IMG/VR virus record: IMGVR_UViG_3300045988_126226 | Span: 131,035-192,808 of that record | Strand: one strand, 5' to 3' | DNA from: a virus | Length of the DNA: 61,774 bases | Shown here: in pieces, positions 21,086-48,631 of the stretch | Layout of the letters: each line of letters starts with the position of its first letter | Position numbering within the stretch: position 1 is the first letter of the stretch | Notes under the pieces: model-generated | What the model saw: the letters and a program-made list of their open reading frames with translations, nothing else | Databases searched by the model: none | What the model was told of the DNA's origin: nothing | Program-made: the position numbers and the translations under genes

Positions 21086-21172
21086 AAAACTTCTCTTTTT
21101 TTTCATTTTACCTATTGACAAACTCTAAAAGTGTGCTATAATGGTAGTATCAAAAGAAAAGGAGCTTTTCAA

Positions 21173-21448
21173 ATGAAAACATACAACATCATCGACGCTG
21201 AGACTAAGACTACCGCAGTTTTCCATGTCGCAAAGAATGAAAAACTTTTAGACCGGCTCGAAGAAACACTCTATATCACACAAGAATTAGAGCCGTATTT
21301 CAGAGATTGGAAATCGCATCTTGCGACTTTTGGTTGGGCTGATTTTAGTTACCATTGTGTTGAATTTTTCCGCGTGTCCTATGACTGGGCTGACTCGCCG
21401 ATTGAGGTTAAACCAATCGACTATCCGGTGAATAGATTGGAGCAGTAA
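21173..21448 (+). CDS. hypothetical protein (91 aa)
   Basis: promoter ttgacaa..tataat, SD aaaaggag, TAA. Confidence 0.55.
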   Translation: MKTYNIIDAETKTTAVFHVAKNEKLLDRLEETLYITQELEPYFRDWKSHLATFGWADFSYHCVEFFRVSYDWADSPIEVKPIDYPVNRLEQ

Positions 21449-21543
21449 TGCTCCAATCTTTTTTCAAACTTTTTTGAAAAACCTATTGATAAATCCCGAA
21501 TCTATGGTATAATAAGAGTATAAAAAGAAAGGGGATAAACCAA

Positions 21544-21738
21544 ATGTTATTTATTGTTTCTGTCAACTACTACAACTATAAGGCTGATGATAACAACCGT
21601 TATCGCTATGAAGTGTCTGTCGCGGGACAGGAAAACGCATATGCCCTCGGGCAGAAGTTCATGGACGCAGACAACGTCCTCTCGGTTGACATTATCGATG
21701 CAATGACCGGCGAAGTCATCGAGAGTTGGGAAGAATAA
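21544..21738 (+). CDS. hypothetical protein (64 aa)
   Basis: promoter ttgataa..tataat, SD aaagggg, TAA, terminator. Confidence 0.5.
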   Translation: MLFIVSVNYYNYKADDNNRYRYEVSVAGQENAYALGQKFMDADNVLSVDIIDAMTGEVIESWEE

Positions 21739-21869
21739 AAAAGCTCGGCAGGATATACAAAATCCTGCCGAGCTTTTTATTCAATTTGCCTATTGACTTT
21801 TGTTATAGCTCATGCTATACTATAATTGTTCCAAGGGAACGACATTAAAGATGAAAGAGGTTAATAAAG

Positions 21870-22109
21870 ATGACTTTGGGCATGGTTAAAAATGTGATTG
21901 GTCTGGTAAAGGGCGCGCTGATGTTCTATGAGGGGAACGGTATTGAAGTGATAAATGAAAACACTTGCGGCCGCTATCTCAAAGACCGCAAAGGTCGCAT
22001 GACTCTGAACGGCGATGTTTTGGGCGCAAGCGAGGAATGGGTGCTGGGACTGCCGGTCAGCGGTTTGAAAGCCAAAGATGACGTTCTCATTATTTATGTT
22101 GATGGTTAA
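21870..22109 (+). CDS. hypothetical protein (79 aa)
   Basis: SD agagg, TAA. Confidence 0.5.
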   Translation: MTLGMVKNVIGLVKGALMFYEGNGIEVINENTCGRYLKDRKGRMTLNGDVLGASEEWVLGLPVSGLKAKDDVLIIYVDG

Positions 22110-22124
22110 AATTAAATTTTTTGA

Positions 22125-22330
22125 ATTAAAAATCTCCCCAAAAATGGGGAGATTTTTTTGTATATTTTGCCTATTGACAATCCCAAAACTTTGTGGTATA
22201 ATCGGCCGGCCGTGCACGCCAGGCGCGGCCGGAATTTTGTGTCAATATGCAAGTTCAACAATTTTTATGGCGAAAGTTTGTGCATAATGTCAATAGACAG
22301 AATCCCGAATCGGTGCTATACTATAATCAC
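22125..22330 (+). promoter_or_regulatory. regulatory cassette B: terminator; P1 ttgaca(22174)-tggtataat; hairpin ccggccg..cggccgg (22203-22232); P2 tagaca-N17-tatact (22293-22322)
   Basis: read directly. Confidence 0.55.
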
Positions 22331-22374
22331 AGTAAGGGAAGGAAAACCTAAACAAACCGGAAAGGGATAACAAC

Positions 22375-22683
22375 ATGATTAACATTCGTTCTATTCGCAA
22401 GCTCGCTGAAAACGATGGCCTGACTCTCAAATATGGCAAGAAAATCAACTACAAGTCCGGTTGGCAAGTCGCTACCGATGGCGTAGAGTGCAAGACCGCG
22501 CGCGAGGCCATTAACGCGGTCAAGGAATATGGCGGAAACTGCGGGGTATGGCTTGCGAACGGCATCTATTATGTTGACAAGTCCAAGAGAGTGCAGACTA
22601 AGAAGCAGGCGCTTGAAATTGGCAAGGCGTGCAATCAAATCAGCGTATATGGCTGGGCGCGCGGGAATCTCGCCTATTGCTAA
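22375..22683 (+). CDS. hypothetical protein (102 aa)
   Basis: SD aaagggat, TAA. Confidence 0.55.
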   Translation: MINIRSIRKLAENDGLTLKYGKKINYKSGWQVATDGVECKTAREAINAVKEYGGNCGVWLANGIYYVDKSKRVQTKKQALEIGKACNQISVYGWARGNLAYC

Positions 22684-22761
22684 AAGAAATTGCATATAGG
22701 GCTTGACAAAAGCCCTTCCGCATGATATAATACATATACAATCAAGAAAGAGGTAAGTAAG

Positions 22762-22911
22762 ATGGATATGGTTCGAGTTTACAATAGACACACTAACGAA
22801 GTTCTTGAAAAGACCTTTGCAGACCCCGCGGACGCAGACGACTTTGAAACTATTCTCGACTTCCTTGAAGCGGAATATGAGCGCTACCACGATGGGGAAC
22901 AATGTTATTAA
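22762..22911 (+). CDS. small acidic protein (49 aa)
   Basis: promoter cttgacaa..tataat, SD aagaaagagg, TAA. Confidence 0.45.
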   Translation: MDMVRVYNRHTNEVLEKTFADPADADDFETILDFLEAEYERYHDGEQCY

Positions 22912-22983
22912 AGGGGCTTGACAAGCCCCTCCCCATATGGTATAATACAATCAATCCAAGAGGAAAAGAAAGAGGTAAAACAA

Positions 22984-23322
22984 ATGCTTATCAAAATGTC
23001 AAAACACGCCACGCAAGACCGCATTGACCGCTTGTTCTTCATCTATGACAATATCGGTATTGGTGAGCCATATATCGACAGCGCTGAGGAAGATGTTCTC
23101 TACACCATCACTACAACAGGCGTTCTTCTTGTTCGTAGTGCTACGGACGGCACACTCATTACAGCCTATATCGCGAATATTGACAAAATCACCGCGATAT
23201 GGAGAAACAAGCACGGCGAGCGCCCCATGCCTGACAACCTTTACAAGCGTGTCCTCGCAAATGCGTTCTTTGATAGAATGTGGAATAAACAGGAAAAGGA
23301 GAAAAAGAAAAATGTTCGGTAA
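22984..23322 (+). CDS. hypothetical protein (112 aa)
   Basis: promoter ttgacaa..tataat, SD aaagagg, TAA. Confidence 0.5.
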   Translation: MLIKMSKHATQDRIDRLFFIYDNIGIGEPYIDSAEEDVLYTITTTGVLLVRSATDGTLITAYIANIDKITAIWRNKHGERPMPDNLYKRVLANAFFDRMWNKQEKEKKKNVR

Positions 23323-23668
23323 GAAGAAAGAAAAGAAATTCAATCCCTATGAGAATCGCGCAGACGAAATGCTTTATAAGGTTTGGGAAGAGCGCGACCG
23401 CCTGCTTGAAAAGACAAGGCAAGCTATTACGCGCGTAGGAGTGATTAACCTCTACCCCGATGGCGCTGACCGCAAGAAAGCCGTCTCTGACGCCGAAGAA
23501 GCGAAGCACGCTTTGCTTGTAGCTATTGGAGCATACGACACCGCGCGCATGGAGTATAATAACTACATCAAAAAGTATGCGGAAAAGTTCGATAGCCCCA
23601 AAGAGGAATGGACTACCACGAGCCATGAAATTATTGAATGGGCTTACAAATACTATTATAAAGGGTGA
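23312..23668 (+). CDS. hypothetical protein (118 aa), basic N-terminus
   Basis: ATG 23312 with SD aaaaggag; overlaps previous gene end. Confidence 0.5.
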   Translation: MFGKKKEKKFNPYENRADEMLYKVWEERDRLLEKTRQAITRVGVINLYPDGADRKKAVSDAEEAKHALLVAIGAYDTARMEYNNYIKKYAEKFDSPKEEWTTTSHEIIEWAYKYYYKG

Positions 23669-23673
23669 ACGAA

Positions 23674-23913
23674 ATGAAAATTACTGTTAAGCATAGCAAC
23701 AAAATGGTTGCATTTGAAGACCTCCCCGAGGGTATGATTTTTCAAGACCCTGCTTCTGGAAACGTTTATTACATCAAAATCGCGTCTGTGGTTGATGAAG
23801 ATACCGGCGCAGAAGAATGGAACGCTCTCAATTTAGACACTTACAATCTCGACTGCTTTGGCGCGCCCTGCATGGTTCGGCCTGTCTATGACGCGGAACT
23901 GATTATCCCTTGA
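23674..23913 (+). CDS. hypothetical protein (79 aa)
   Basis: ORF with SD aagggtg, TGA. Confidence 0.5.
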   Translation: MKITVKHSNKMVAFEDLPEGMIFQDPASGNVYYIKIASVVDEDTGAEEWNALNLDTYNLDCFGAPCMVRPVYDAELIIP

Positions 23914-24009
23914 CAAAACCGAACTTTTGTTCGTGTTTTTCTCCCCCTTTCCTATGGCTTTGGCGGTTGTGCCTGAAACAACCGCCACCCTTTCCAAAAA
24001 ATAAATTGA

Positions 24010-24201
24010 ATGGAGATAAGAAAAATGAAAAATGAGAAACTGAGCGAGGTTGTTGAAACGGTGTGCAGAATGGCTCGATACGGTATTCAGAAGAGATATC
24101 CATCGGGCGGGACAGCGGCAAATGAAATGATTGAGCGTGTCGCGCTTCTTGAAGATAAGCTCGTCCCCATTCTCGTCGACCTCGAAGCCGTAGGAAACTA
24201 A
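24010..24201 (+). CDS. hypothetical protein (58-63 aa)
   Basis: two candidate ATGs (24010/24025) after ggagataag; TAA; terminator follows. Confidence 0.45.
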   Translation: MEIRKMKNEKLSEVVETVCRMARYGIQKRYPSGGTAANEMIERVALLEDKLVPILVDLEAVGN

Positions 24202-24203
24202 AT

Positions 24204-24400
24204 GAAAAATCACCCAATTTGGGTGATTTTTTTTGTTTACTTTCACTATTGACAAAGTTCCTTGAATGTGATAAAATTGGCGGCGCGCGGACGATTGTAG
24301 CGCGCCGAGTTTTTTGTCAAGAGGTAGATTCAACAAATTTTCATACGAATTTTTGTGCAAAATGCCAATAGACAAAAATCCTATAATGTGGTAAGATGTA
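24204..24400 (+). promoter_or_regulatory. regulatory cassette C: terminator; P1 ttgaca(24249)-tgtgataaaat; hairpin cggcgcgc..gcgcgccg (24279-24309); TGTCAAGAG (24314); P2 tagaca-N17-taagat
   Basis: read directly. Confidence 0.55.
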
Positions 24401-24424
24401 TACAACAAATAAAGGGGGACTAAA

Positions 24425-24772
24425 ATGATGGTTGCATGGTATTGGTTGATTCTCGCGTTTTGCGTGGGTATTGCGTTCGCTACAATCACCGATGAGTGGT
24501 GTGATTGGGAAAATACTTTAACAGATGTTCTCGCATGGATTGCTCTGATTATCGGCTTCGTTCCTTTGTCTTTCTATTGCATATTTCTCAAACTGACGGT
24601 TTTTCACCCCACAACGCCAGAGAAATTTGAAGAAGTTAAAAAGGTTAGCGGAGAGACTTGTAAAATCTATCGAGTATGCGGAAACGTGTATTTTTGGATT
24701 GACCTTAAAGCAACAAAAATCTATAACAAGGTCTTTTTTGTCCGAGTAAAGGAGACTGAAAACAATGTATGA
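24425..24772 (+). CDS. membrane protein (115 aa, 2 TM)
   Basis: SD aaaggggga, hydrophobic helices, TGA. Confidence 0.55.
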   Translation: MMVAWYWLILAFCVGIAFATITDEWCDWENTLTDVLAWIALIIGFVPLSFYCIFLKLTVFHPTTPEKFEEVKKVSGETCKIYRVCGNVYFWIDLKATKIYNKVFFVRVKETENNV

Positions 24773-24923
24773 GGAAGTTAATACTTTGCGCTTGATTGAT
24801 TGGTTGCGCGCTTGGACGGAAACCTTTAATGACTGCGCTTGTTGTCCTTTGTCCAACGAGTGCGACCGCCGAAGCATCAGCTATGAATGTGCTGATGACC
24901 TATTAGAAAAATTAAAAGAGTAA
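24765..24923 (+). CDS. Cys-rich small protein (52 aa)
   Basis: SD aaaggagac, CACCP..C..C motif, TAA. Confidence 0.45.
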   Translation: MYEEVNTLRLIDWLRAWTETFNDCACCPLSNECDRRSISYECADDLLEKLKE

Positions 24924-24996
24924 ATTAAAAACTCTCTATTGACATTTCTATTATAATATGATATTATTATAATAGAAAAAGGAAAGGGTGATAATA

Positions 24997-25470
24997 ATGA
25001 ATACAATTCTTCTGTTCGCACTTTGCACGGCGGTGAATGTGATTCTGTCAACCATCAAAAGCATTTTGACTGTCAACGGCGGAAAGATTAGCGCGTCTCT
25101 TATCAATGCCATCACTTATGGTTTTTATTCCTATGTGATTGTGCTGACTTCCGCGGACGGTATGCCTATTTGGTTAAAAATGGCTATTACTGCCGTTTGT
25201 AATTTCATAGGCGTTTACCTTGTCAAGTGGATTGAAGAGAAAGCCCGCAAAGATAAATTATGGAAAGTCGAGCTTACTGTCCCGACAAAATACACTAACA
25301 CCATTGATTTTGATTTGCATGACGTTCCACATTCTTACATTGAATTGAGCGATAAACATACGCTTTTCAATTTTTACTGCGCGACCCAAAAGGAAAGCGC
25401 AAAAGTCAAGGCTATTGCCAATCAATACGAAGCAAAATATTTTGTCGCGGAAAGCAAAAATCTTGAATAA
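24997..25470 (+). CDS. membrane protein (157 aa)
   Basis: SD aaaggaaagggtg, N-terminal TM helices, TAA. Confidence 0.55.
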   Translation: MNTILLFALCTAVNVILSTIKSILTVNGGKISASLINAITYGFYSYVIVLTSADGMPIWLKMAITAVCNFIGVYLVKWIEEKARKDKLWKVELTVPTKYTNTIDFDLHDVPHSYIELSDKHTLFNFYCATQKESAKVKAIANQYEAKYFVAESKNLE

Positions 25471-25534
25471 AGGACTTGACAAAAGCCTTTTGTTCTGCTA
25501 TACTTAATGTATCAAGTGAAAGGGGAAAATTAAA

Positions 25535-25987
25535 ATGAAAGCTACTGGTATTATCCGCAGAATTGATGACCTTGGACGTGTGGTTATTCCGAAAGAGATT
25601 CGCCGGACTTTGAAGATTCGCGAGGGCGACCCGCTTGAAATCTTCATTGAAGACAACGACTGCGTTTGCTTTAAGAGGTATTCGGTGCTTGGTTCGCTGA
25701 CCGAAGAAGCTCTGCGAACCGCTATTACAATGGCATCGAATTCCGGTCTGCGCCCTATCGCAATCTATGATACTACCGTGAAACTGCGGGGTATGGAAAA
25801 CTATCCGGCTTATGTTCCGACCCAGTGGAAATTTGAAAGAAAGCCGTTTGTTTTCAATAGCACTTATGGCGTTTATCCGATTACCGCGGACGGCGACCTT
25901 GTGGGTTATGCGGTTTGCGACCAGCAAGACATGGGTTGCGAAATGGATATGATTGTCCGCTATCTCAGCATTGTGTCTGAATGTTAA
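25535..25987 (+). CDS. AbrB/SpoVT-family transcriptional regulator (150 aa)
   Basis: N-terminus GIIRRIDDLGRVVIPKEIRRTLKIREGDPLEIF matches the swapped-hairpin AbrB/MazE/SpoVT DNA-binding domain; C-terminal extension as in SpoVT. Confidence 0.65.
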   Translation: MKATGIIRRIDDLGRVVIPKEIRRTLKIREGDPLEIFIEDNDCVCFKRYSVLGSLTEEALRTAITMASNSGLRPIAIYDTTVKLRGMENYPAYVPTQWKFERKPFVFNSTYGVYPITADGDLVGYAVCDQQDMGCEMDMIVRYLSIVSEC

Positions 25988-25992
25988 AAATA

Positions 25993-26245
25993 TTTTGAGA
26001 CGAGATAACCAAATCTCGTCTCAAAATTTTATTTATTTTGCCTATTGACAAAAATCCAATAGCGTGATAAAATGGCCGGCCGTTCGCGCATGCCACGGCC
26101 GGAAATTCCATTATACCACCATCTCAGCAATTTGTCAATAGGAAATTTAGCCAAAAGTCTAACTAATTATTTTCCCGAATTTGGGCATTTTACCAATAGA
26201 CAAGAATGTAATAATCTGCTATACTATGATTACCGTAAAGGAAAG
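25993..26245 (+). promoter_or_regulatory. regulatory cassette D: terminator; P1 ttgaca(26045)-gtgataaaat; hairpin ccggccg..cggccgg (26074-26102); conserved spacer; P2 tagaca(26197)-N17-tatact
   Basis: read directly. Confidence 0.55.
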
Positions 26246-26257
26246 GGGATATAAACA

Positions 26258-26521
26258 ATGTATTACACTCACGATTTTTCTACTGAAAAGTTCTCTACTC
26301 GCGGAGAATGTGTGGAAGAGCTTCTTTCTTCTATGGATTCTCTTGATATTTCAGAGTTTCTCGCCCACCGCGTTTCTCTTGCTGATATTATTAGTGAACG
26401 CATGGCCCGCGACCCCGAGGACTTTTACGACTGGTTAGATAGAGAAATTCAGATTGCGACTAATGCCTATCTTGAATGGCATATCAACGAACACTACGGT
26501 CATATAGAGGATTTAGAATGA
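26258..26521 (+). CDS. hypothetical protein (87 aa)
   Basis: SD aaaggaaagggg, TGA. Confidence 0.55.
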   Translation: MYYTHDFSTEKFSTRGECVEELLSSMDSLDISEFLAHRVSLADIISERMARDPEDFYDWLDREIQIATNAYLEWHINEHYGHIEDLE

Positions 26522-26661
26522 TTATTTTAATCGGCATTTTCGGCCTCGTTTTTGGCTTTATTTTTGCTTATTCCTGTGAAAGTCTCGGGTGGGACTATTT
26601 CAATATCGTATACGCTATTCCTGTGCTGATTTTGCTTAATTTCTTATCTTTCGTGTATTGA
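26518..26661 (+). CDS. small membrane peptide (47 aa)
   Basis: ATGA overlap with previous stop; hydrophobic. Confidence 0.4.
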   Translation: MIILIGIFGLVFGFIFAYSCESLGWDYFNIVYAIPVLILLNFLSFVY

Positions 26662-26752
26662 AAAAGACCGCGAAAATTTTGAAAAAAACGCTTGACAAGC
26701 AAATCCAATAGTGGTATAATACAGATACAGTAAAGGAAAGGGGTAAATACCT

Positions 26753-27253
26753 ATGAAAATCACTTACATCAAGTCTCACGTTGTAGCTACTCGACGCTCC
26801 ATCAACTTTGATATGGACGGCACTATCGCCAATCTGTATAATGTTGACAAGTGGTTAGAAAAACTTGGAGAAGAAGATGCTTCTTGTTATAGTGAAGCTG
26901 GCCCTATGTGCGATATGGCCGCGCTGAATGAAATCTGCGAACTTCTCCGCGCCGAGGGTTGGGAAATCAATATCATCACTTGGCTTGCTAAAAATTCAAC
27001 TGAGGAATATAAAAACCTCGTGCGTGAAGCAAAGCGCGAATGGCTTGAAAAATGGGGTTTCCATTACGACCATTTTTACGGCGTCCAGTATGGCGCAACC
27101 AAAGCCGACAGCGTGCGCGGTCGTTATGACGTGTCTATCCTGATTGACGATAATGAAAAGGTTCGGAATGGTTGGCACTTGGGCGCTACCATTGACCCGA
27201 CCGCAGTAAACATTATCGAAAAACTTTCGGAACTTTTGGAGAAAAGGGCTTGA
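26753..27253 (+). CDS. HAD-superfamily phosphatase, likely 5'(3')-deoxyribonucleotidase-like (166 aa)
   Basis: motif I FDMDGTIANL (DxDG[TV]) near N-terminus and ILIDDN motif IV; promoter cttgacaa..tataat; SD aaaggaaagggg. Confidence 0.6.
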   Translation: MKITYIKSHVVATRRSINFDMDGTIANLYNVDKWLEKLGEEDASCYSEAGPMCDMAALNEICELLRAEGWEINIITWLAKNSTEEYKNLVREAKREWLEKWGFHYDHFYGVQYGATKADSVRGRYDVSILIDDNEKVRNGWHLGATIDPTAVNIIEKLSELLEKRA

Positions 27254-27308
27254 CAAAGCCCTACTCCAATGGTATAATAAATACATCAAATGAAAAGGGG
27301 AAAATAAA

Positions 27309-27515
27309 ATGTTTGTTCTTTTGATTCTGCTGTCTCTCGCTGTTTCGTTCCTGCTTACCTCGGGTTTGGTTTGGCTTCTCTGTTGGCTTCTTCCCGCCCT
27401 CGGTATCACCGCAATCGGCACTTTTGTTATCGTGTTCTCGTGGAAGCTGGCGCTCGTGGTTTGGATTGTTCTCGTGCTTTTACAGTCCATCTTCTCGGTC
27501 GGCAATAAGGGGTGA
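27309..27515 (+). CDS. small membrane protein (68 aa, 2 TM)
   Basis: SD aaaagggg, hydrophobic. Confidence 0.5.
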   Translation: MFVLLILLSLAVSFLLTSGLVWLLCWLLPALGITAIGTFVIVFSWKLALVVWIVLVLLQSIFSVGNKG

Positions 27516-27520
27516 TAAAA

Positions 27521-27664
27521 ATGATGCCTTACTTTTGGCTTACTCTTGGCGTTCTCGCCAAAGTGACCGGACGAACTGCCGGTGGTAATTACCGTTATGA
27601 AACGGTTGTCTCTAAGGAAATTGGACTTGTGACCGCAGATTGGGTTAATACCCATCTGTTGTGA
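27521..27664 (+). CDS. small protein (47 aa)
   Basis: ATG 27521 after ggggtgataaaa; TGA. Confidence 0.4.
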   Translation: MMPYFWLTLGVLAKVTGRTAGGNYRYETVVSKEIGLVTADWVNTHLL

Positions 27665-27671
27665 GGTAAAA

Positions 27672-27986
27672 ATGCTGTATTTGATGATGGATAATTTAAC
27701 CAATAGCCATTTGGTTAAAGTTGGCTATTCTGACGGCACTAAGAACCTCGCAAAGCGTCGTAAAAGCTATTATAGCCACAATCCGAAAGCAATAATGCGT
27801 AGCACTTGCGCCGGAAGTCGAGACATAGAAAATTCTTGTCATCTGACTTTAAGTGAGTTAGGCAATCGCATTAGTGGCACAGAATGGTTTGAAGTGTCTG
27901 CGGATTTGTTTAATTCTCTTTATACCGAGGGAATGGCATTTTTCAGACCAAACCATAAACCGATTCATTTCTTAGAAGAATTTTGA
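27672..27986 (+). CDS. T5orf172/GIY-YIG-like domain protein (104 aa)
   Basis: VKVGYSDGTKNLAKRRKSY...TEWFEV pattern typical of the T5orf172 family. Confidence 0.45.
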   Translation: MLYLMMDNLTNSHLVKVGYSDGTKNLAKRRKSYYSHNPKAIMRSTCAGSRDIENSCHLTLSELGNRISGTEWFEVSADLFNSLYTEGMAFFRPNHKPIHFLEEF

Positions 27987-28000
27987 AAGAGGAAATAAAA

Positions 28001-28258
28001 ATGAAAGTAAATTTTGGCACTAAGGGTCAGCTTCAAATTATCAACATTCTCAGTGGTGGCACGTTCACCACCCCGCGTTCCAATGGCGTCGGCATGGGAA
28101 TGTATCTCAAAATTGACAGCAACAACAACACGCCGTTCGTTCGGTCGAGAGGTTCGCAGTATTGCTACGCGGTAAATCTTGAAACGGGTCAGGTTCGCGA
28201 GTTCTCGCGCGACAAAATGGTGACGCCGGTCAAGACCGAAGTCAATGTGATTGGCTAA
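28001..28258 (+). CDS. hypothetical protein (85 aa)
   Basis: SD agaggaaa, TAA, terminator. Confidence 0.5.
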   Translation: MKVNFGTKGQLQIINILSGGTFTTPRSNGVGMGMYLKIDSNNNTPFVRSRGSQYCYAVNLETGQVREFSRDKMVTPVKTEVNVIG

Positions 28259-28261
28259 AAG

Positions 28262-28492
28262 AAAATCTCCCCAAAAATGGGGAGATTTTTTTTGTTTACT
28301 TTAACTATTGACAAAACCATCTAAATGTGCTAAAATTGGCCGGTCGCTGACGCATGTTGCGACCGGAATTTACCATTATACACCCCACCAGCATTTTTGT
28401 CAAGAGAAATTTCGCACAAATTTCAATTTTATTTTTTCCCGTTATTTGGTTATTTTACCAATAGACAAATCATTACCAATCTGCTATACTAC
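28262..28492 (+). promoter_or_regulatory. regulatory cassette E: terminator; P1 ttgaca(28308)-tgtgctaaaat; hairpin ccggtcgc..gcgaccgg (28338-28366); TGTCAAGAG (28399); P2 tagaca(28462)-N17-tatact
   Basis: read directly. Confidence 0.55.
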
Positions 28493-28494
28493 AT

Positions 28495-28638
28495 AATGTC
28501 AGGAGGAAAGAGTAAGACCTGCGGAAAGGCAGTTCCCTTGACCATTATACCAAAATCCGACGGAATGTTCCAAGCGTGGCGTGCCGAACAAACTTTCAAA
28601 AAAAGTTTGAAAAACCCCTTGACAAACCGTTCTACGTA
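28495..28638 (+). ncRNA. promoter-proximal leaderless transcript AAUGUCAGGAGG... (sRNA or 47-aa leaderless ORF MSGGKSK.. ending in TAG)
   Basis: AUG lies 5 nt after -10 tatact; no SD; paralogous to 31032 and 31215 elements; ends at -35 of next promoter. Confidence 0.4.
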
Positions 28639-28901
28639 GGGTATAATGAATACATCAAATAAGAGAGGTAAACAAAATGATTTCTGATGCTCGTCCACCG
28701 CCTTAAAGACTGATTTGGTTTAGTAAAATGAATTGATTTATGATTATAGATAAAGGTAGGTATAAACAAGATGTATAGTAATAAACCTCGCGACCGCCCC
28801 CTAAAAAAATTGTAAAACCTATTGACAACCTGCTCCGCCTATGATATAATAACTACATCAAAGACAAGGACAGTCTTAAAAACCAGAAAGGAATTGATAC
28901 T

Positions 28902-29276
28902 ATGTCTACTTCTACTGTTAAGAAGCTCACCAAGCGCGACCGTTTCGAGGCTCTGCTCAAAATGAGCGAGGTTCAGGCGAATCCTGATATGGTGGCGTTC
29001 ATTGAGCATGAGATTGAACTGCTCGCCAAGAAGAACGCGGGCGATAAGAAGCCCACGGCCAAGCAGATGGAGAATGACGCCGTGAAGCAGGTCATTCTGG
29101 ACGAGATGACCGCAAACCCTGACAAGCTGTATACCGTGACCGACCTCATCAAGGGCGTTCCCGAGCTTGCGGAGTATACCAACCAGCGCGTTTCCGCTCT
29201 TCTGCGTCAGATGATTGATGCAGACACGGTTGTCAAGACGGTTGACAAGCGCAAGTCCTACTTCTCCCGCGCGTAA
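28902..29276 (+). CDS. paralog family protein A (124 aa)
   Basis: SD aaaggaa; about 70% identical to 31522..31899; distant paralog at 50327. Confidence 0.6.
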   Translation: MSTSTVKKLTKRDRFEALLKMSEVQANPDMVAFIEHEIELLAKKNAGDKKPTAKQMENDAVKQVILDEMTANPDKLYTVTDLIKGVPELAEYTNQRVSALLRQMIDADTVVKTVDKRKSYFSRA

Positions 29277-29419
29277 GGGTAAAGGGCAGGGGATAAAAAA
29301 AATCCCCTGCCCCACAATAAAAAACTGTTGACAAACCAATAGCAAAGTGCTATACTATTATCAGAGGTTGAGAGAACGATGGTAAACCTCAATCTACTTT
29401 TCCAATAGGAGACGATAAA

Positions 29420-30196
29420 ATGGGTATTGATAGGCGCAGAAACTACGGTATTATGCTGGACACGGAAACCGCAAACACCATTCAAGATGGTGATAAGCTG
29501 GATATGTCAAATGTTCTCCCCTACGACTTTGGCTGGGCGGTCATTGATTCCAAGGGTAATGTTTATGAGACTTATTCTTTTGTGAATCGAGACATTTTCT
29601 GCTATGAGCGCGACCTGATGCAGTCCGCATACTACGCCAATAAGATTCCCCGCTACATCGAGGACATTAAGAACGGTTCGCGCGTGATGGCTGACCTTTA
29701 CGAAATCCGCAAGGCATTTTGTGATTGCGTCGAGCGTTATAACTGTTCTTTCGTGTGCGCTCACAATATGCGGTTCGACCTTAACGCCTGCAACAACGCG
29801 CAAAGATGGGACACGAAAAGCAAGTATCGCTATTTCTTCCCCTACGATCTCGAAATCTGGGACACTCTGAAAATGGCGCGACAGGTTATGGGTAAAATGC
29901 CCACTTACCGCGACTATTGCGAAAAAAACGGCTACAAGACCAAGAACGGACAGCTCCGTTTCACCGCAGAAATTCTTTACCGCTTTATCAGCGGTGAAGA
30001 TAGCTTTGATGAATCCCACACGGGACTTGAAGATGTTCTCATTGAAGTTGAGATTCTGCGCTATTGCGTCCGACAGCACAAGGAAATGGAAAAGTCCCTT
30101 TTCAAAACTCCCACAGTGGAACGTCCCAAGCCGACCGAGTTTCAGCGCGCGCTCATGCGAAACATTAAGGAAAATCCCATGATAAACATGAGCTAA
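29420..30196 (+). CDS. DEDDh-type 3'-5' exonuclease (DnaQ/RNase T-like, 258 aa)
   Basis: Exo I MLDTETA, Exo II CAHNMRFDL, Exo III HTGLEDV motifs in correct order and spacing. Confidence 0.65.
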   Translation: MGIDRRRNYGIMLDTETANTIQDGDKLDMSNVLPYDFGWAVIDSKGNVYETYSFVNRDIFCYERDLMQSAYYANKIPRYIEDIKNGSRVMADLYEIRKAFCDCVERYNCSFVCAHNMRFDLNACNNAQRWDTKSKYRYFFPYDLEIWDTLKMARQVMGKMPTYRDYCEKNGYKTKNGQLRFTAEILYRFISGEDSFDESHTGLEDVLIEVEILRYCVRQHKEMEKSLFKTPTVERPKPTEFQRALMRNIKENPMINMS

Positions 30197-30274
30197 AAAA
30201 AAATAGGGAATGGGGCTTGACAAGTCCTATTCCCTATGGTATAATCAATGTATCAAATGAAAGAGGTGTTTTAC

Positions 30275-30553
30275 ATGACTGCTAAACAAGTCCTTTTTGT
30301 AGTCCCTGATGACAATGACCCTCACATGGGCATTTTAATCGACCATGACTATATTATCTGCGCCGAGTGCGGTGGCGTCTTTGAAGCTGACGAAGTTTTC
30401 ATTATTCAGATCTACGACTCTTGGGTAAACTTTGAAGATGAAATTGCGGACGAGCTTGACCTGCTGACCGCAAAAGACATTGGCAAGGAGCTGGATAGCA
30501 AGGAAAAGTTCGGCTGGGACGCGTGGAAAGAAGCCATTAAAGGGGAGTTCTGA
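30275..30553 (+). CDS. hypothetical protein with CxxC pair (92 aa)
   Basis: promoter cttgacaa..tataat, SD aagaggtg, TGA. Confidence 0.5.
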   Translation: MTAKQVLFVVPDDNDPHMGILIDHDYIICAECGGVFEADEVFIIQIYDSWVNFEDEIADELDLLTAKDIGKELDSKEKFGWDAWKEAIKGEF

Positions 30554-30555
30554 AA

Positions 30556-30648
30556 ATGGATTTGGATTTTACTTACATGACCAACGAAGAACTGGACGAA
30601 CTCATCGCTCAGATAAAGGAAGTCAAAGAAACCCGAGCGGAAAGCTGA
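30556..30648 (+). CDS. small acidic peptide (30 aa)
   Basis: ATG 3 nt after previous stop. Confidence 0.3.
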   Translation: MDLDFTYMTNEELDELIAQIKEVKETRAES

Positions 30649-30799
30649 AAGACTGACCTTTGGAGAAACGTTCAGCGGTCGGTTCAGAATTACGTCATGG
30701 AGTGTGGAATGATTGAACTCTTTACCGAGGACTACAATTCCACGCTGGACGCTGATTCTTTCCGTATTCCCGGCGAGATTAACCTGCTGGACTAAAATA

Positions 30800-31030
30800 A
30801 AAAACTGCCCAAAAATGGGCAGTTTTTTTTGTCTATTTTGCCTATTGACAAACGCGGATTTTTGTGATAAAATGGGCGGACCGCTGGCGCATGCGGCGGT
30901 CCGAATTTTTAATTATACCATGCCCCGCCAATTTTGTCAAGAGAAAAGCTGCACAAAAGTAAAGAAAATTTTTTCCCGTAATTTGGTTATTCTGTCAATT
31001 GTAATTTGTGGGCAATCTGCTATAATGAAT
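30800..31030 (+). promoter_or_regulatory. regulatory cassette F: terminator; P1 ttgaca(30845)-gtgataaaat; hairpin cggaccgc..gcggtccg (30875-30903); TGTCAAGAG (30935); P2 -10 tataat (31021)
   Basis: read directly. Confidence 0.55.
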
Positions 31031-31031
31031 A

Positions 31032-31175
31032 ATGTCAAGAGGGAAACCCCTGAGCCACAGGTCGGTGTGGGGCTACGGTTGGAAGTAGCAATAGACCGTT
31101 CACCTATTACGTTAAGGTCTCTTCGGAGCGGAACGCACGGGATAAAAGAAAAAATTCATGAGTTTTTTCTTGAAA
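31032..31175 (+). ncRNA. candidate sRNA 1 (starts AAUGUCAAGAGGGAAA; contains CUC-UUCG-GAG tetraloop hairpin)
   Basis: own promoter (-10 tataat 31021); no SD; only an 18-codon ORF ending in TAG; ends at -35 of next promoter. Confidence 0.45.
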
Positions 31176-31214
31176 ACCTCTTGACAAATCCCAGCGAGTG
31201 TGCTACAATAGAAA

Positions 31215-31440
31215 ATGTCAAGAGGGAGTAGCCCAAGAAATCCGAGGGCGCGCGACTTCGAGAAAGTACAGGAAGTAAACATAATATACCACGTTGTAAA
31301 GCCAAACGTTGAACGCGAAAGTGAGTTTGATTGAGCCAACTATACTCGAAGCGGTTTTCGCTGACAGATAGATTGAACCAACAAACAATAAATTATCCGT
31401 CAGGTCGGGGTAGTAATTCGTGTAAAAAGTTTGCGAAACC
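31215..31440 (+). ncRNA. candidate sRNA 2 (starts AAUGUCAAGAGGGAGU; shares CAGGUCGG motif with sRNA 1)
   Basis: own promoter ttgaca(31181)-N17-tacaat; no long ORF or SD; followed by promoter of 31522 gene. Confidence 0.45.
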
Positions 31441-31521
31441 TCTTGACAAGCACTCTAAAATGTGGTATACTCAATATATCAAAAGGGTAGCGACCTACCG
31501 CCAAAGAAAGGAATTGATACT

Positions 31522-31899
31522 ATGTCTACTTCTACTGTTAAGAAGCTCACCAAGCGCGACCGTTTCGAGGCTCTGCTCAAACTGTCCGAAGTTCAGGCTG
31601 ACCCCGCCATGGTTGAGTTTATCAATCACGAGATTGACCTGTTGGCTCGCAAGAACGCGGGAGACAAGAAGCCCACGGCGAATCAGATTGCCAACGACGG
31701 CTACAAGGACATTATCTTTGCTGAGCTGTCCGCGAATCCCGACAAGCTGTATACCGTGACCGAACTCATCAAGAACGTGGACGGTCTGGGTGACCTCACC
31801 AATCAGCGCGTTTCCGCTCTTTTGCGTCAGATGATTGACGCGAACGGCGTCGAGAAGATTGTGGACAAGCGCAAGTCCTACTTCCGTCTCGCGCGCTGA
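31522..31899 (+). CDS. paralog family protein B (125 aa)
   Basis: promoter cttgacaa(31443)..tatact, SD aaaggaa, TGA, strong terminator 31903-31935. Confidence 0.6.
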   Translation: MSTSTVKKLTKRDRFEALLKLSEVQADPAMVEFINHEIDLLARKNAGDKKPTANQIANDGYKDIIFAELSANPDKLYTVTELIKNVDGLGDLTNQRVSALLRQMIDANGVEKIVDKRKSYFRLAR

Positions 31900-31999
31900 T
31901 TCAGGGGGAGCGCCTGAAAAAAATCAGGCGCTCCCAAAAATTTCTCTTGACATTTGCTGACGGCGGTGTTATAATCATACTTGAAAGGGGGCAAAAGAA

Positions 32000-32407
32000 A
32001 TGCCTAAAATGAGTGAAAAGGACTTTCAGGCAAAGATTGATAATCTAATGAAAAAATTAGATTGTACTGCCGAGGAAGCAAAAGAAATTCTCATGGACGA
32101 TGATGACATTGACCATGGAATCGCCAAGGACTTTGACCTGTCCGCGGAAAAGCTCAAAGAAGCTAACAAGTATTCTAAGACCGGAACACGCAAAGCGCCG
32201 ACCGCTTATAAATTCGAGAAGCGACAGCGCAAGGAAAACCCCACAAAACGCTCGATTATCGCTGAACTTGCGACTTTTTTGCGTGAAAACAGCGAAAATG
32301 CGTGCGAAAATGTGGAAATTACGAATGTGGAGCGCATGATTGCGTTCCATGTGGGCGAAAATGACTACGAATTGACCCTGATTCAGAAGCGAAAGCCCAA
32401 AAACTGA
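32000..32407 (+). CDS. hypothetical protein (135 aa)
   Basis: promoter ttgacat..tataat, SD aaaggggg, TGA, terminator 32412-32452. Confidence 0.55.
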   Translation: MPKMSEKDFQAKIDNLMKKLDCTAEEAKEILMDDDDIDHGIAKDFDLSAEKLKEANKYSKTGTRKAPTAYKFEKRQRKENPTKRSIIAELATFLRENSENACENVEITNVERMIAFHVGENDYELTLIQKRKPKN

Positions 32408-32525
32408 TGAAAAAGGGTGAAAAACCGCTGAAAAATGCGGTTTTTCACCCAAAAACAAGTCAAAAAATGCAAAAAAATAATGGTTGAAAGAACGATGGTA
32501 AACCTCAATCAATAGAGAGGATTTT

Positions 32526-32942
32526 GTGCGAATGGAAGAAATTACTATTAAGCTACGCCGATTTAAGGACGGCAGACCGCCCGTTTCAATGGAGTTTATG
32601 CCCGATTGTGGCGAGAATCTGAAAGACGTTCAAGCGGTTTATTTCTTCAAGTTTTACAACAACAACAAACTTGAATTTAACAAGGTAGGCACTTCCGCAA
32701 AAGACGTTGTAGGGCGCTTACGTGATGAAATCGGCGAATACTCGAAAAAGTATTCTATCACTCGCGTTGAGATTCACCGAATCCGTTCTTGTGGGGACTA
32801 TCCCGCCGAGGGTGCGGAATCGGCATTGCGTGCGGAACTGATTAGACGCTACCCCAAAGCGTTTAGAAAGAATGACCGCTTTTTCAATGTGGACATTAAC
32901 CCCACGGTTTTCGATGAAATTGTAAACGCATTTCTTGCATAA
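32526..32942 (+). CDS. hypothetical protein (136-138 aa; GTG 32526 or ATG 32532)
   Basis: SD agagagga; preceded by conserved leader stem-loop; TAA; terminator 32950-32985. Confidence 0.5.
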   Translation: MRMEEITIKLRRFKDGRPPVSMEFMPDCGENLKDVQAVYFFKFYNNNKLEFNKVGTSAKDVVGRLRDEIGEYSKKYSITRVEIHRIRSCGDYPAEGAESALRAELIRRYPKAFRKNDRFFNVDINPTVFDEIVNAFLA

Positions 32943-32949
32943 ATATTCA

Positions 32950-33062
32950 ATCAGCAGGTTGACTAAAACCTGCTGATTTTTTTTGTGTATTTTGCCTATT
33001 GACACCGATCGGAAAATGTGGTATAATGGCCGGGCCGGGGTGGGACGTCCCGGCCCGATTTC
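32950..33062 (+). promoter_or_regulatory. regulatory cassette G: terminator; P1 ttgaca(32998)-tggtataat; GC hairpin 33028-33057; followed by ~270 bp non-coding with CCATATG inverted repeat
   Basis: read directly. Confidence 0.5.
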
Positions 33063-33336
33063 CCGATCGGTATACCCATATGCAAAATTTCTCATACTTC
33101 TAGCACCTCTCCATATGGCCCAAAAAAATCCCGAAAATTGACTTTTTATAAAAAATATGTTATAATGATAAAAAAAGACTTTTTTAAGCCCGCGTAGGAT
33201 CATATGCCTTTATAATTAATTAAAAATTGCTTCGCCCTTACATTGTTTCACGCGTATGTTTTCGTCCAAAAAAATCTTGACATTTTTAAAAAAAAAGTAT
33301 ATAATATATATAGAAAATAAGAAAAGAGGTATTCAT

Positions 33337-33714
33337 ATGGATATGAATGATATTATTGCTCGTCTAAAAAATGGTGAGGACGCTCAGGCTATTGCGGACG
33401 AAATGGCTAAGTCTCTGAATGATGCGGTTAAGCAAGTGGAGAAGGAAACTAAGCAGGCCGATCGGAAGACCGCGCTCGCGCAGGAAATCGCTGATCGGAT
33501 TAACGAGTATGCCGCTCTTAATGGCTGCAAGGATTCCGCGTTGACCGCGTCTGATGTGGAGAATATCTTTGCTGAGGTTTACGGTCTTATGACCGGGGTT
33601 ACCGATCTTCTTGACGCGCTTTTTCCCAAGAGTGAGAAGGTAAAGGTTAAGAAGGTCAAGAGAACTGATGATGATGTAATTGCCGAATTTTTGAATACTT
33701 TCATCAATAAGTGA
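33337..33714 (+). CDS. hypothetical helical protein (125 aa), first gene behind middle-type promoter
   Basis: promoter cttgacattttt..tatataat, SD aagaggt, TGA, terminator agagagac..gtctctc-T8. Confidence 0.55.
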   Translation: MDMNDIIARLKNGEDAQAIADEMAKSLNDAVKQVEKETKQADRKTALAQEIADRINEYAALNGCKDSALTASDVENIFAEVYGLMTGVTDLLDALFPKSEKVKVKKVKRTDDDVIAEFLNTFINK

Positions 33715-34490: not shown

Positions 34491-34669
34491 TTCATTTTTC
34501 CTTTTCAAATTTCGCGTTCGCCACGCCGGCAGGCGACTCGGATCTACGATCCTCCCTGCCTACGGGGTATTATTTTTCATTTCATTTTTTCTTTTATTAT
34601 ATATATTATAATATATTATTTATTATAAATCAAATAATACCCCTATAAACGAGGGCATTTATACCCTTA

Positions 34670-34945: not shown

Positions 34946-35095
34946 ATTTTACTCCTTTTACTCTCAAAAAACACCCCAGTATATATTTATAAAACGAAGG
35001 GCGTAGCCCGGAGTTTTATAAATATATACATTTCTATTTCTATTTATAAAGGATACTAAAATTTTAACAACTGGCGTCTAAATTTTTAACATTTC

Positions 35096-35752
35096 ATTTA
35101 GAGGGGTTGTGCAATAAATTTAACAAACTAAATGAAATATTTACTCTATTACATTTGTTAACCAATCAAGTCTATAAATAGTTTTTACATTCTCAAATGA
35201 ATCATTCTCTTGCTAAAAAGTAGATAATGAATATTTAATTAAACCAATTTTTCCTAATACATATAAAATATTTATAATTATATCATTATTACTTCTTGTA
35301 GTAGTGCAAATACCAATATGAGCTTTAATACTATCTAAAGTAAACTGATAGGGTTTACATCCTTGTCTATAATATTCATTCAATAAATAAACATAAGCTG
35401 AAATACAATTTTCACTTAAAGTGTCAGTAAGTAATTTTAAAGTATTATAAGGAATCAATGAAGCGTAATCTTTATCTAATTTAATTAAAGAATAAGTATT
35501 TTTATCTACTTCAATAATTAATCCTAATTCTTTTAAATTCTTAAATTTAGTAGAAATAGTCTAACGAGTTAATCCAAATTTTTCACCTAATTTGCTAAAA
35601 TTAATATCTTTCTTATAAAATAATCTTTCACCAGTCATTTCATTAAGAACAGACACCTATTGTAAATAAGCATAAAGGATATCATAATATTTTTTATTAG
35701 AACAAATATCTATAGTTTTTGGAACCTATCTTGAATTCTTCTATATATCCAT
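35096..35752 (-). CDS. winged-helix/HTH DNA-binding protein, candidate iteron-binding replication initiator (218 aa, 5 TAG)
   Basis: HTH segment LGEKFGLTR-Q-TISTKFKNLKELGLI; ORF 35213..35458 extended both ways through TAG; adjacent to iteron array. Confidence 0.45.
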
Positions 35753-35814
35753 TTTATACCTCCTTTCTCATATATACATCAAATATCTTGTTAACTCATT
35801 AACAACATTCGTCC

Positions 35815-35965
35815 AATAAATAGATGTCTAATTTTTTAACAAAATATATAGGTGTCTAAAATTTTAACAAAATTTTTTAACATTCATATAGATGTCTAAA
35901 ATTTTAACACTTTTAATATTTTTATATAGGTGTCTAAAATTTTAACAAAAATTTTTAACACTTTT
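35815..35965. repeat. iteron array: 4 direct repeats of RRRTGTCTAAAATTTTAACA (plus a fifth copy at 35065-35082)
   Basis: repeats read directly at 35822, 35852, 35891, 35929; intergenic between divergent gene blocks. Confidence 0.7.
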
Positions 35966-36247
35966 TCTTACATTGTATTACGCGGTTTCCCTTGCCCTAA
36001 TCCGCCTCTATACTTGCTATCCGATCTCTTCATCAAAAATTTTTGACCAGAAATATAGAAAAAAAACGGACAAAAATATAGAAAATTTTGACCATTTTCA
36101 TTTAAAATGACCATTTTTGGTAAGCCGATCATTGAACCCAGTCTTTATGCTACCTTGAAGCGACAAAACCGCTTTATTGATTTTTATTAAATTTTAATAT
36201 ATAATATAAATATAAAATAAAGAAAAACTATTGAAAGGTGATAAATA

Positions 36248-39419: not shown

Positions 39420-40157
39420 ATGATTCCTGGACTTTATGAAATCTTTAATACGCGCTGGGGTGGTCAGACGGTCTGGGTATCCTCTGATTGGCATTTTGGC
39501 GATTCGGATCTGCGGAACGGCCACCCCGACCGCATTTCTGATGATGACCTTGTAAAATTGCTGAATAGCAAAGCCGGTCGGAAAGATGTGCTTCTTTGTT
39601 TGGGTGACGCAGGTGCGATCTCCTATGTGCGGAAACTGCGTGCCGGTTATAAGGTTCTTATCAAGGGCAACCATGATGCGGGATCTGAAAACTATAAGCG
39701 CAAAATCATTAAGAAAAAGTTCCCTATGGATCAGTATCAAAAAGACGAAGCGCTTATGGAAATGAAACGTCTTTATCCTGATTGTAAATATTCTATTGAC
39801 TCGGGATATGATTTCCATTCTCCTTTTGAATATTGGGAGATTTCCGCGGATAACGGTCTTTTTGACGAAGTATATGATGGCGCGCTCCTTATTGGTGAGA
39901 AACTTATGCTTTCTCACGAACCGATTAAGCAGGACTGGGCTCTCGATCTTCACGGCCACGACCACAATCATAAAGAGACGGACATCTATCACAAGAATGT
40001 TTGCGTGGATGTATTTGGCCCCGCCCCTTTGAACTTAAATCAGTTCATGAAAAATGGTCCGACTGCGAAGATCGAGAGCGTCCACAGGCAAGTGATTAAC
40101 AAAGCCACGATCAAAGCCCGGAAACGCGGATACAAATTGTCCGGACAAAAATATTGA
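39420..40157 (+). CDS. calcineurin-like metallophosphoesterase (245 aa)
   Basis: motifs SDWHFGD, CLGDAG, GNHD, HGHDH in canonical order. Confidence 0.65.
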   Translation: MIPGLYEIFNTRWGGQTVWVSSDWHFGDSDLRNGHPDRISDDDLVKLLNSKAGRKDVLLCLGDAGAISYVRKLRAGYKVLIKGNHDAGSENYKRKIIKKKFPMDQYQKDEALMEMKRLYPDCKYSIDSGYDFHSPFEYWEISADNGLFDEVYDGALLIGEKLMLSHEPIKQDWALDLHGHDHNHKETDIYHKNVCVDVFGPAPLNLNQFMKNGPTAKIESVHRQVINKATIKARKRGYKLSGQKY

Positions 40158-40197: not shown

Positions 40198-40356
40198 ATG
40201 AAAACTAAAAATAGTAGAATTGAAATTAGATTGCCTGAATAGATTAAAAATCAATTTCAGCTTTTAGCGAATAAAAAAAATACTACTATGAGCGCTATCT
40301 TATTAGAATACATTTTATTTTTACTAAGAAAAGAAGGTAATGAAAATGGGATATAA
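40198..40356 (+). CDS. ribbon-helix-helix (Arc/CopG-like) DNA-binding protein (52 aa, 1 TAG)
   Basis: SD gaggtg; beta-strand RIEIRLPE-Q-IKNQFQ followed by helices; overlaps start of endonuclease gene. Confidence 0.45.
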
Positions 40357-41269
40357 AATTGATATGACTGGATAGAAATTCGGTCGTTGGACTGTCATAG
40401 GTTTTGATTGTAATAAAAATAGACGAACTATGTGGAAGTGTAGATGCGATTGTGGCACTGAAAGAAGTGTTGAAGGAGCTCGTTTGAGAGGTGGTCGATC
40501 AAAATCTTGCGGATGCCTTTTAAGAGAAAGCACAGCATTACGTAGTCGTAAAGACATAACAAATTAGAGGTTTGGTCGATTAGTTGCTTTATATCCAACC
40601 GAAGAGCGTCAAGGTGGAAAAATTATTTGGTTATGTAAATGCGATTGTGGTAATGAAGTAAAAGTCCCAATAGATAGATTAACTGGAAAAAATACTTAGT
40701 CTTGTGGTTGTTTATCGAAAGAAAAAACAAGTGAAAGATTTTGTATTGATTTAACGGGATAGATATTTGGAAAATTAACTGTAATAAAAAGAGATAATAC
40801 TAAAAACTATAAACGAGTGCGTTGGCTTTGTAAATGTTCTTGCGGAAATTCAGAATTAGAATCTGTTGATGGCTATTATTTAAGGTCAGGAGAAAAAACT
40901 CAATGTTCTAAATGTGTTCCTAAGTCAAAAGGAGAAGAACAAATAAAAAATATTTTAATTAAAAATAATATTTCTTTCACACAAGAAAAAAGTTTTGATG
41001 ATTGTCGTTTTCCTAAAACTAATAGACTTGCTCGTTTTGATTTTTATATAGATAATAAATATTTAATAGAATTTGATGGAAGATAGCATATTTAGAATAC
41101 CAGTAAATGGAACAGTGAATGGAATTTAGAATATGTTTAGGAGCATGATTAGATAAAAAATAATTATTGTAAAGAACATAATATTCCTTTAATTAGAATT
41201 CCATACAGTAAAATTAATTATATCAAGCTTGAAGATCTTTTATTAGAAACTTCTAAATATAAAATATAA
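40346..41269 (+). CDS. multi-repeat Zn-ribbon / PD-(D/E)XK homing-endonuclease-like protein (307 aa, ~9 TAG)
   Basis: three repeats of G[KR]W..C[KR]C.CGN..(n)..SCGCL plus C-terminal FDFYIDNKYLIEFDGR-Q-HI Vsr/DUF559-like domain; open only with TAG as sense. Confidence 0.5.
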
Positions 41270-48502: not shown

Positions 48503-48631
48503 ATATAATAAAACCCCTTTCGCAAGAAAGCCCTTTGATTGACCGCAAAGGGCTTTCTTTATTTTTATAAAAAAATATATTATAATATATATATAAGGTT
48601 AAGAAAGATATTAAAAAGAGGTTGATAAGAT

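Follow-up and report, generated by a model that had tools for sequence, protein, structure and literature searches.

A winged-helix gene bracketed by direct repeats

We analysed a 61,774-nt window (positions 131,035 to 192,808) of the virus record IMGVR_UViG_3300045988_126226 and concentrate here on a short cassette in which a gene for a tandem winged-helix (WH) protein is flanked on both sides by groups of short direct repeats (Table 1). Taken with an inverted repeat upstream of its start codon, this arrangement makes the cassette a candidate for a self-contained, autoregulated Rep-like initiator with its own iteron origin, a reading to which we give about an even chance of being right. The gene, with a ribosome-binding site (AGGAGG) 8 nt upstream, has five in-frame stops, all TAG (codons 4, 9, 32, 64 and 180), and a G+C content of 22% against 33–43% in its surroundings; a database protein, P0001, is 99% identical to the product and has Q at the TAG positions. 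The original prediction, made from the sequence alone, placed a WH protein of 218 amino acids at 35096–35752. The WH assignment holds, with two such domains in tandem, and the protein shortens to 203 amino acids (35141–35752), because the end at 35096 reads through two TAA codons.

The repeats are statistically significant and confined to one locus. Their 16-nt core, GTCTAAAWTTTTAACA, has five matches with at most one mismatch, against 0.02 ± 0.14 expected from 100 shuffles, and a scan of the window at up to three mismatches finds six copies (0–2 mismatches) around the gene, all inside 35054–35947, together with four weak matches elsewhere (three with 3 mismatches, one with 2). Uniqueness was assessed over the 61.8 kb of the window: the full motif is absent from the remaining 60 kb, 17 kb of which are late genes, and 8 of the window's 13 copies of the octamer TTTTAACA fall within 35062–35960, all on the plus strand. 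A genome-wide promoter motif was considered and ruled out, the other strong promoters of the window also lacking the full motif. A literature search with the motif sequences found no paper.

Upstream of the gene, each full core is preceded by (T/C)ATATAG(A/G)T, which extends the site to ~25 nt; on the gene strand the full site reads TGTTAAAAWTTTAGACAYCTATATA, and successive copies start 28, 40 and 38 nt apart. At 18% G+C, the array is the region's most AT-rich stretch of 150 nt, within a cassette that is AT-rich throughout and in which no discrete 13-mer-type unwinding element was defined. The four upstream copies, the flank before each of them and their AT-rich setting are thus as originally described; the single fifth copy proposed downstream gives way to three sites just past the stop codon. 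The last of these belongs to a terminal element at 35033–35071 (TTGTTAAAATTTTAGTATCCTTTATAAATAGAAATAG on the gene strand) that has TAGTATCC as its distal half, followed by TTATAAATAGAAATAG; it resembles TTGTTA-15/16-TATAAA and may be a promoter for the next gene or a special site.

The inverted repeat overlies the putative −35 element and spacer of the gene's promoter, ~50 nt ahead of the ATG and separated by 37 nt from the last full site. It is probably an autoregulatory operator. As in iteron origins, then, direct repeats of ~17–25 bp stand in one orientation beside the gene and are unique in the window, and an inverted repeat containing a half-iteron sequence covers the promoter of the putative initiator.

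Table 1. Coordinates of the cassette and its borders, numbered from the first letter of the window.
Feature	Position	Strand	Remarks
Near-identical sigma-70-type promoter	34605–34633	−	Strong; other flank of the cassette
Hairpin after downstream sites	34979–35029		51 nt; DNA fold −15 kcal/mol, z = −5.7
Downstream site group, just past stop codon	35054–35125	+	Three sites
Terminal downstream variant	35054–35069	+	2 mismatches; TGTTAAAATTTTAGTATCC on gene strand
Downstream exact site	35076–35091	+	0 mismatches
Downstream variant site TGTGCAATAAATTTAACA	35108–35125	+	Sequence scan
Tandem winged-helix protein gene	35141–35752	−	ATG 35752, TAA 35141–35143, 203 aa
Half-site inverted repeat TTGTTAA-CTCA-TTAACAA	35788–35805		Between array and ribosome-binding site
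Upstream array	35817–35960	+	Four full sites and two half-sites, single orientation
Upstream full-site cores	35826–35841, 35854–35869, 35894–35909, 35932–35947	+	Same strand
Upstream half-sites TTTTAACA	35875–35882, 35953–35960	+	Sequence scan
Variable spacer, array to divergent promoter	35961–36176		Relatively G+C-rich; closed by GCGGTTT...AAACCGC
Sigma-70-type promoter TTGATT-17-TATAAT	36177–36205	+	Strong; outer cassette border

Conservation of the cassette among relatives

The protein belongs to a family of 276 clusters at 90% identity (374 representatives at 50%), found on contigs of up to ~199 kb. We compared about 20 non-redundant loci, 72% down to 31% identical, drawn from metagenome assemblies, IMG/VR, three metagenome-assembled genomes and GenBank (single loci are cited by L numbers). 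Complete relatives include IMGVR_UViG_3300024272_001728 (191,974 bp) and ERZ28594164 scaffold_15 (185,843 bp), and hosts among the Clostridia or Lachnospiraceae are suggested. The same cassette recurs among them: an array of 2–7 units, the inverted repeat, the gene, sites after its stop codon and a long hairpin. Of the two halves of the site, TGTTAAAA does not vary within the family; the other, distal half is specific to the lineage (TAGACAYC, GTACATC, GACGACATC, TTTCTAT, TTGGCC, GTATACC or GTAGA). Two distant relatives (L151 and L152, ~31–32% identity) have perfect 22-nt tandem arrays of 3 and 5–6 copies that abut or overlap the gene's canonical promoter, TTGACA-17-TATAAT/TAAGAT.

The position of these elements relative to the gene is fixed: counted from the start codon, the last site is at about −89 and the inverted repeat near −52. 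A regular-expression scan found TTGTTAA-N3/4-TTAACAA in 13 of 19 loci, its arms conserved and its 3–4-nt spacer variable; L003 has it too, missed by the scan owing to a mis-called start. It lies at −49 to −58 in 11 of the 18 other loci and at −74 in L028. Every orthologue has 1–5 sites after the stop codon, and the terminal variant (TGTTAAAAAAATAGTATCC, then TTATAAATAGAAATAG) persists down to ~32% identity (L152, 1270–1300) and is better kept than the ordinary sites. When viral contigs were scanned with a degenerate 17-mer for a second cluster of sites in a genome, the matches listed included one site-bearing stretch on a related 80.5-kb contig and many chance single matches. Separately, L005 carries an unrelated array of AAATTGTGGGTGTG-type repeats at 4774–4927, ~180 nt downstream of the orthologous gene.

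The hairpin beyond the downstream sites is conserved in shape. The window's version pairs 17 bp in an AT-rich lower stem and 4 bp in a GC top, with a 3+3 internal loop between them; in the relatives examined a 13–17-bp AT-rich lower stem, a small symmetric internal loop, a 4–5-bp GC top and a tri- or tetraloop return in other sequence (L003 6714–6753, L008 4715–4759, L009 2421–2459, L024 4690–4732, L151 1462–1526). With its T-run often missing, it differs from a typical intrinsic terminator and could act as an RNA element or as a signal in single-stranded DNA. At the other end of the cassette, the spacer between array and divergent promoter varies from 0 to 200 nt among relatives and is bounded by TGCGG...CCGCA (upstream regions of L009, L014, L024 and L025; L151 645–670); its appearance is that of a small insertion or variable hairpin at a TGCGG site that is itself conserved. 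Rfam gave no match for the spacer and only a chance microRNA match for the cassette.

A predicted fold shared with plasmid initiators

An AlphaFold2 model built with 27 homologues (predicted local distance difference test score 91, predicted template-modelling (TM) score 0.86) shows an N-terminal strand followed by two tandem WH domains, which in the model superpose on those of RepE and Pi. In a Foldseek search of the PDB the best 33 matches were all initiators of iteron plasmids, among them RepE54 (1rep, 7rva) and Rep with iteron and DNA-unwinding-element DNA (8aan, 8ac8), with Pi (2nra) at rank 37; these matches are full length, with E between 2.5e-4 and 3e-3, at TM-scores of only ~0.46, which is moderate. 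Named matches in the BFVD structure database include 'Replication initiator protein' and 'Replication protein O' (E ~4e-6). The most conserved segment of the family is the recognition helix of the first domain (WH1), RQTxSKxFK, which would fit the invariant half of the site.

Among PHROG families, the protein matches phrog_3396, labelled 'segregation and condensation complex subunit ScpB', over its full length (E = 1e-13). This family includes hypothetical proteins of Enterococcus phages H1, EF1, EF5 and VRE9, which are true sequence relatives (tblastn, 31% identity over 81% of the protein). The label, together with a weak match to the archaeal centromere-binding protein AspA (E ~2e-3), raises the question of whether the repeats serve DNA organisation instead, as a centromere-like or condensation and packaging site bound by a protein of the ParR, TubR, AspA or ScpB ('kite') type. 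A direct-repeat array that precedes an autoregulated gene is a typical plasmid-centromere arrangement, and the array here would suit such a site. We nevertheless regard such a role as very improbable. Neither in the window nor in any relative is there an adjacent ParA, ParM, TubZ or SMC/kleisin partner; no kleisin ScpA or SMC gene adjoins the WH gene, and no ParA, ParM or TubZ gene shares its operon. The neighbours differ between loci, none being a nucleoside triphosphatase, and the partition site offered as an alternative in the original prediction finds no support. ScpB is missing from the 50 best Foldseek matches in the PDB, so the fold search lends the PHROG label no support, and we found no experimental basis for that name, which was assigned automatically. 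The large-terminase (TerL) and other packaging genes, moreover, lie ~20 kb from the cassette, and no homologue of the protein was found on PLSDB plasmids.

Comparison with the mini-F replicon

RepE of mini-F, a protein of ~200–250 amino acids with two tandem winged helices, is the best full-length structural match. We re-read the mini-F replicon with the repeat finder used for the window. It has four iterons spaced 21, 33 and 22 nt, an operator with the half-iteron TGTGACAA ~50 nt before repE, and five further iterons, the first of them 3 nt past the repE stop codon; the roles of these elements are origin binding, autorepression by the dimer and negative control by looping (PMC13028717). The phage cassette repeats the oriS–repE–incC layout in the same order and at nearly the same distances, with four direct repeats upstream, a half-iteron inverted repeat between array and start, and repeats right after the stop. 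Related systems are those of R6K Pi, pPS10 RepA and P1 RepA (incC/incA), mini-F RepE itself belonging to Rep_3 (PF01051 + PF21205).

Binding, the assignment of domains to site halves, autoregulation and origin firing are steps that we infer. One protein molecule would bind one ~19–25-bp site, its WH1 recognition helix reading the invariant TGTTAA half; about one helical turn from there, the second domain (WH2) would read the distal half, which differs between lineages (TAGACAYC here). In RepE it is the C-terminal winged helix that reads the shared half, whereas in the phage protein the conserved half-site appears to be paired with the N-terminal one. With the four upstream sites occupied, all in one orientation and where the region is richest in AT, a nucleoprotein complex would form that opens the DNA or recruits a phage or host helicase and primase. 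By analogy with the RepE division between monomers on iterons and dimers on the operator, a dimer on the half-site inverted repeat over the promoter would shut off the protein's own synthesis. The sites past the stop codon could pair with the upstream set and limit firing by looping or handcuffing, as mini-F incC does, or might instead control the next promoter.

Phage initiators offer a second comparison. Lambda O and SPP1 G38P are likewise winged helix-turn-helix (wHTH) initiators with repeated sites, and the protein has weak matches to PHROG families of replication initiators (the O-like phrog_678, phrog_428 and phrog_270) besides the BFVD match to 'Replication protein O' at E = 4e-6. In both of these phages a helicase-loader gene follows the initiator gene, which itself contains the iterons; the present cassette has its sites on either side of the gene, and no loader or helicase was recognised in its vicinity. 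As a system, the cassette is a variation on a known class and not a categorically new one.

Recoding and the timing of expression

Sequence comparison shows TAG to be read as glutamine in this phage, in keeping with genetic code 15, since the TAG columns at positions 9, 31 and 64 are invariantly CAA or CAG in orthologues and the 99%-identical protein has Q there; among non-TAG residues in TAG columns, 24% are Gln against a background of 4.6%. With 2.5 TAG per 100 codons the WH gene is among the most TAG-dense of the window, and five of its nine Gln codons (56%), including codons 4 and 9, are TAG, compared with 30% in late genes. It is therefore reasonable to suppose that in this phage the protein cannot be made before TAG suppression is active, and the original proposal that it is made late survives to this extent, for this phage; it does not extend to the family, where TAG is absent from 6 of 20 orthologues. 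The idea of TAG as a timing device kept throughout the family was rejected, given that orthologues carry 0–9 TAG at varying positions. Between phage clades, the recoding of replication genes is reported to differ (Borges et al., bioRxiv 10.1101/2021.08.26.457843).

If the protein is made only once TAG means Gln, any action of the module would come after the code switch. A stronger form of this idea, which we consider very improbable, makes the cassette a code-gated late replication switch or copy-number control, or else a semi-autonomous selfish replicon inside these phage genomes. The origin could then fire only after TAG reassignment, a second late mode of replication or a looping-based control of copy number would be coupled to the code switch, and the two bracketing hairpins of conserved structure would be priming or strand-entry signals. 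In favour of a selfish replicon one can cite a module far more AT-rich than its surroundings and, among the other markedly TAG-dense genes of the window, an annotated homing endonuclease.

No suppressor tRNA(CUA) was found in the window. ARAGORN reports a tRNA-like gene at 58771–58841 with an abnormal anticodon loop ('tt'), which Rfam did not confirm, and an 85-nt tRNA at 58864–58948 has anticodon CCA (Trp) and a long variable arm unusual for tRNA-Trp. Besides the WH gene, the most TAG-dense genes of the right-hand block include those at 40328–41269 (a Cys-rich repeat protein with 8 TAG), 54561–54995 and 58981–59775; the last encodes a GIY-YIG/HNH homing endonuclease and echoes the preferential recoding reported for such enzymes.

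Initiator or local regulator

Of the readings considered, an iteron initiator is best supported because of the fold, the four-part match to mini-F, sites restricted to a single locus and family-wide conservation that includes 22-nt arrays. Several observations weigh against it. Sequence searches point elsewhere: Pfam returned only generic WH families over residues ~43–100 (HTH_11 at 8e-6, Crp, MarR, BirA-N), and profile searches of PDB sequences returned generic regulators only. Rep_3 (PF01051 + PF21205) had no match at E ≤ 10 in the Pfam search of the protein and was not among the 25 most often matched of the 51 Pfam families found in 79 relatives; hhalign of the family's profile against RepE of plasmid F and a RepE-family profile gave a probability of 0.3% (E 0.2), and tblastn found no homologue among PLSDB plasmids. 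No conserved DnaA box (at most one mismatch) was found in any locus, no replication gene was recognised among the tested neighbours of the WH gene, and the Enterococcus phage H1 homologue (31% identity) has no recognisable repeat array, unlike the cassette described here. The sign change of GC skew near 36.2 kb coincides with the gene-strand switch, and the skew minimum of the window is at 17 kb; since skew follows gene orientation, it cannot separate an origin from a strand switch. Heavy use of TAG, finally, means that the protein would be unavailable at the very start of infection.

Other differences concern mini-F itself. The phage protein is without detectable sequence homology to RepE, and its cassette, besides lacking DnaA boxes, spaces its repeats at 27/28 nt, with 13 nt more where a half-site intervenes, and not at the 21–22/33 nt of mini-F or the in-phase 22 nt of classical iterons. 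Its downstream sites share the orientation of the upstream ones, whereas those of mini-F are inverted. Its carrier is a phage genome of roughly 190 kb and not a plasmid, and its gene needs TAG as Gln. Significant sequence homology to known initiators was sought with Pfam, NCBIfam, PDB-sequence profiles and hhalign, and none was found. By its predicted fold the protein resembles RepE and Pi, and it is not a demonstrable Rep_3 member; of the Rep-plus-iteron layout first proposed, the layout itself is borne out by the fold search, the conserved inverted repeat at the promoter and the recurrence of the cassette in about 20 relatives, and membership of Rep_3 by sequence is not.

These same searches, which match only the wHTH families of transcription regulators (HTH_11, Crp, MarR, BirA-N, ArsR), suit a protein that acts after the code switch as a local regulator and has no part in initiation. 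Binding cooperatively to the arrays and the inverted repeat, it would repress its own promoter, modulate the divergent promoter at 36177–36205 and the promoter-like element after the downstream sites, and so work an early-to-late switch at an intergenic node in the manner of phi29 p4. Much at the locus is compatible with this: the inverted repeat over the gene's putative −35 and spacer, the site inside the promoter spacer of L152, the L151 array abutting a −35, the terminal downstream element like TTGTTA-15/16-TATAAA, and TAG gating, which suits a late-acting factor. In most relatives, moreover, the array adjoins a conserved strong promoter, TTGATT-17-TGaTATAAT. Much of this evidence does not discriminate, because autoregulation belongs to the initiator model too.

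Other observations argue the other way. Sites occur only around the gene itself in the window and at no other promoter, 34605–34633 included. The distance from array to divergent promoter ranges over ~10–215 nt and the array can be inverted (L021, L024–26) or absent upstream (L022), whereas the geometry relative to its own gene is fixed; in the window, the sites lie upstream of the divergent promoter's −35 and do not cover it. A simple repressor would not ordinarily have up to seven direct units of 22–28 nt and another set behind the gene, and the full-length fold matches initiators first. A purely regulatory protein, which accommodates the same data, is the main rival; we consider it less likely than the iteron initiator, which we retain as the working interpretation.

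Genomic setting

The WH gene and its site arrays sit at a strand-switch node that separates blocks of genes. Minus-strand genes at 0.4–17.1 kb encode the portal, large terminase, a virion structural protein and a sigma factor; this late block (428–17135) has 33% G+C and, over 5348 codons, 68 in-frame TAG. Small plus-strand genes make up the next block (17662–33714), which has 43% G+C and no TAG in 3209 codons, a zero that is partly by construction, its open reading frames having been chosen under the standard code. Code use and composition thus form a sharp mosaic between the two blocks. At the borders of the cassette, the two strong promoters point outward and lie within a 49-nt inverted repeat that is 73% complementary, the one at 36177–36205 driving a divergent TAG-free operon that starts at 36248; facing outward as they do, they mark off the cassette as a separate low-G+C island between two standard-code transcription units.

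Genes downstream of the WH gene are small and without a Pfam match. A calcineurin-like phosphoesterase (Metallophos) gene lies a few kilobases away at 39420–40157, and such a gene also lies near the WH gene in close relatives and in Enterococcus phage H1 (L002 127–864, L003 407–1144, L007 9235–9879); in the window and in H1 the distance is ~3–4 kb. This shared neighbour suggests common ancestry of the region with EF1/H1-type Enterococcus phages; EF1 was part of the ViPTree comparison of a group of TAG-recoded gut phages in the phAss-1 paper (PMC10607447). Farther along, two proteins of 535 and 485 amino acids (48629–50236 and 52720–54177) are by eye apparent paralogues, sharing a ...HPLD(Y/F)...S(D/E)N...W.SC... 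core and Cys-rich C-termini; Pfam gave no match for either, and only the 485-residue protein matches an uncharacterised PHROG (18912).

Significance for recoded gut phages

Large uncultured gut phages have, to our knowledge, hardly any mapped replication origins, and for recoded phages GC skew has so far been the only basis for inferring one (Borges et al., bioRxiv 10.1101/2021.08.26.457843). A compact, conserved and sequence-defined cassette supplies a concrete, testable protein–DNA pair and a candidate origin for a large group of uncultured recoded gut phages, and it has further value as a correction of the 'ScpB' label. Should the protein prove to be only a regulator, the finding would be an ordinary one. 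If it is an initiator, a new sequence family, filed as 'ScpB' in PHROGs, would join the RepE/Pi structural class, and the whole PHROG would need re-annotation. An initiator would then stand behind a stop-codon gate in some lineages and not in their close relatives, which would bear on how recoding times the course of infection.

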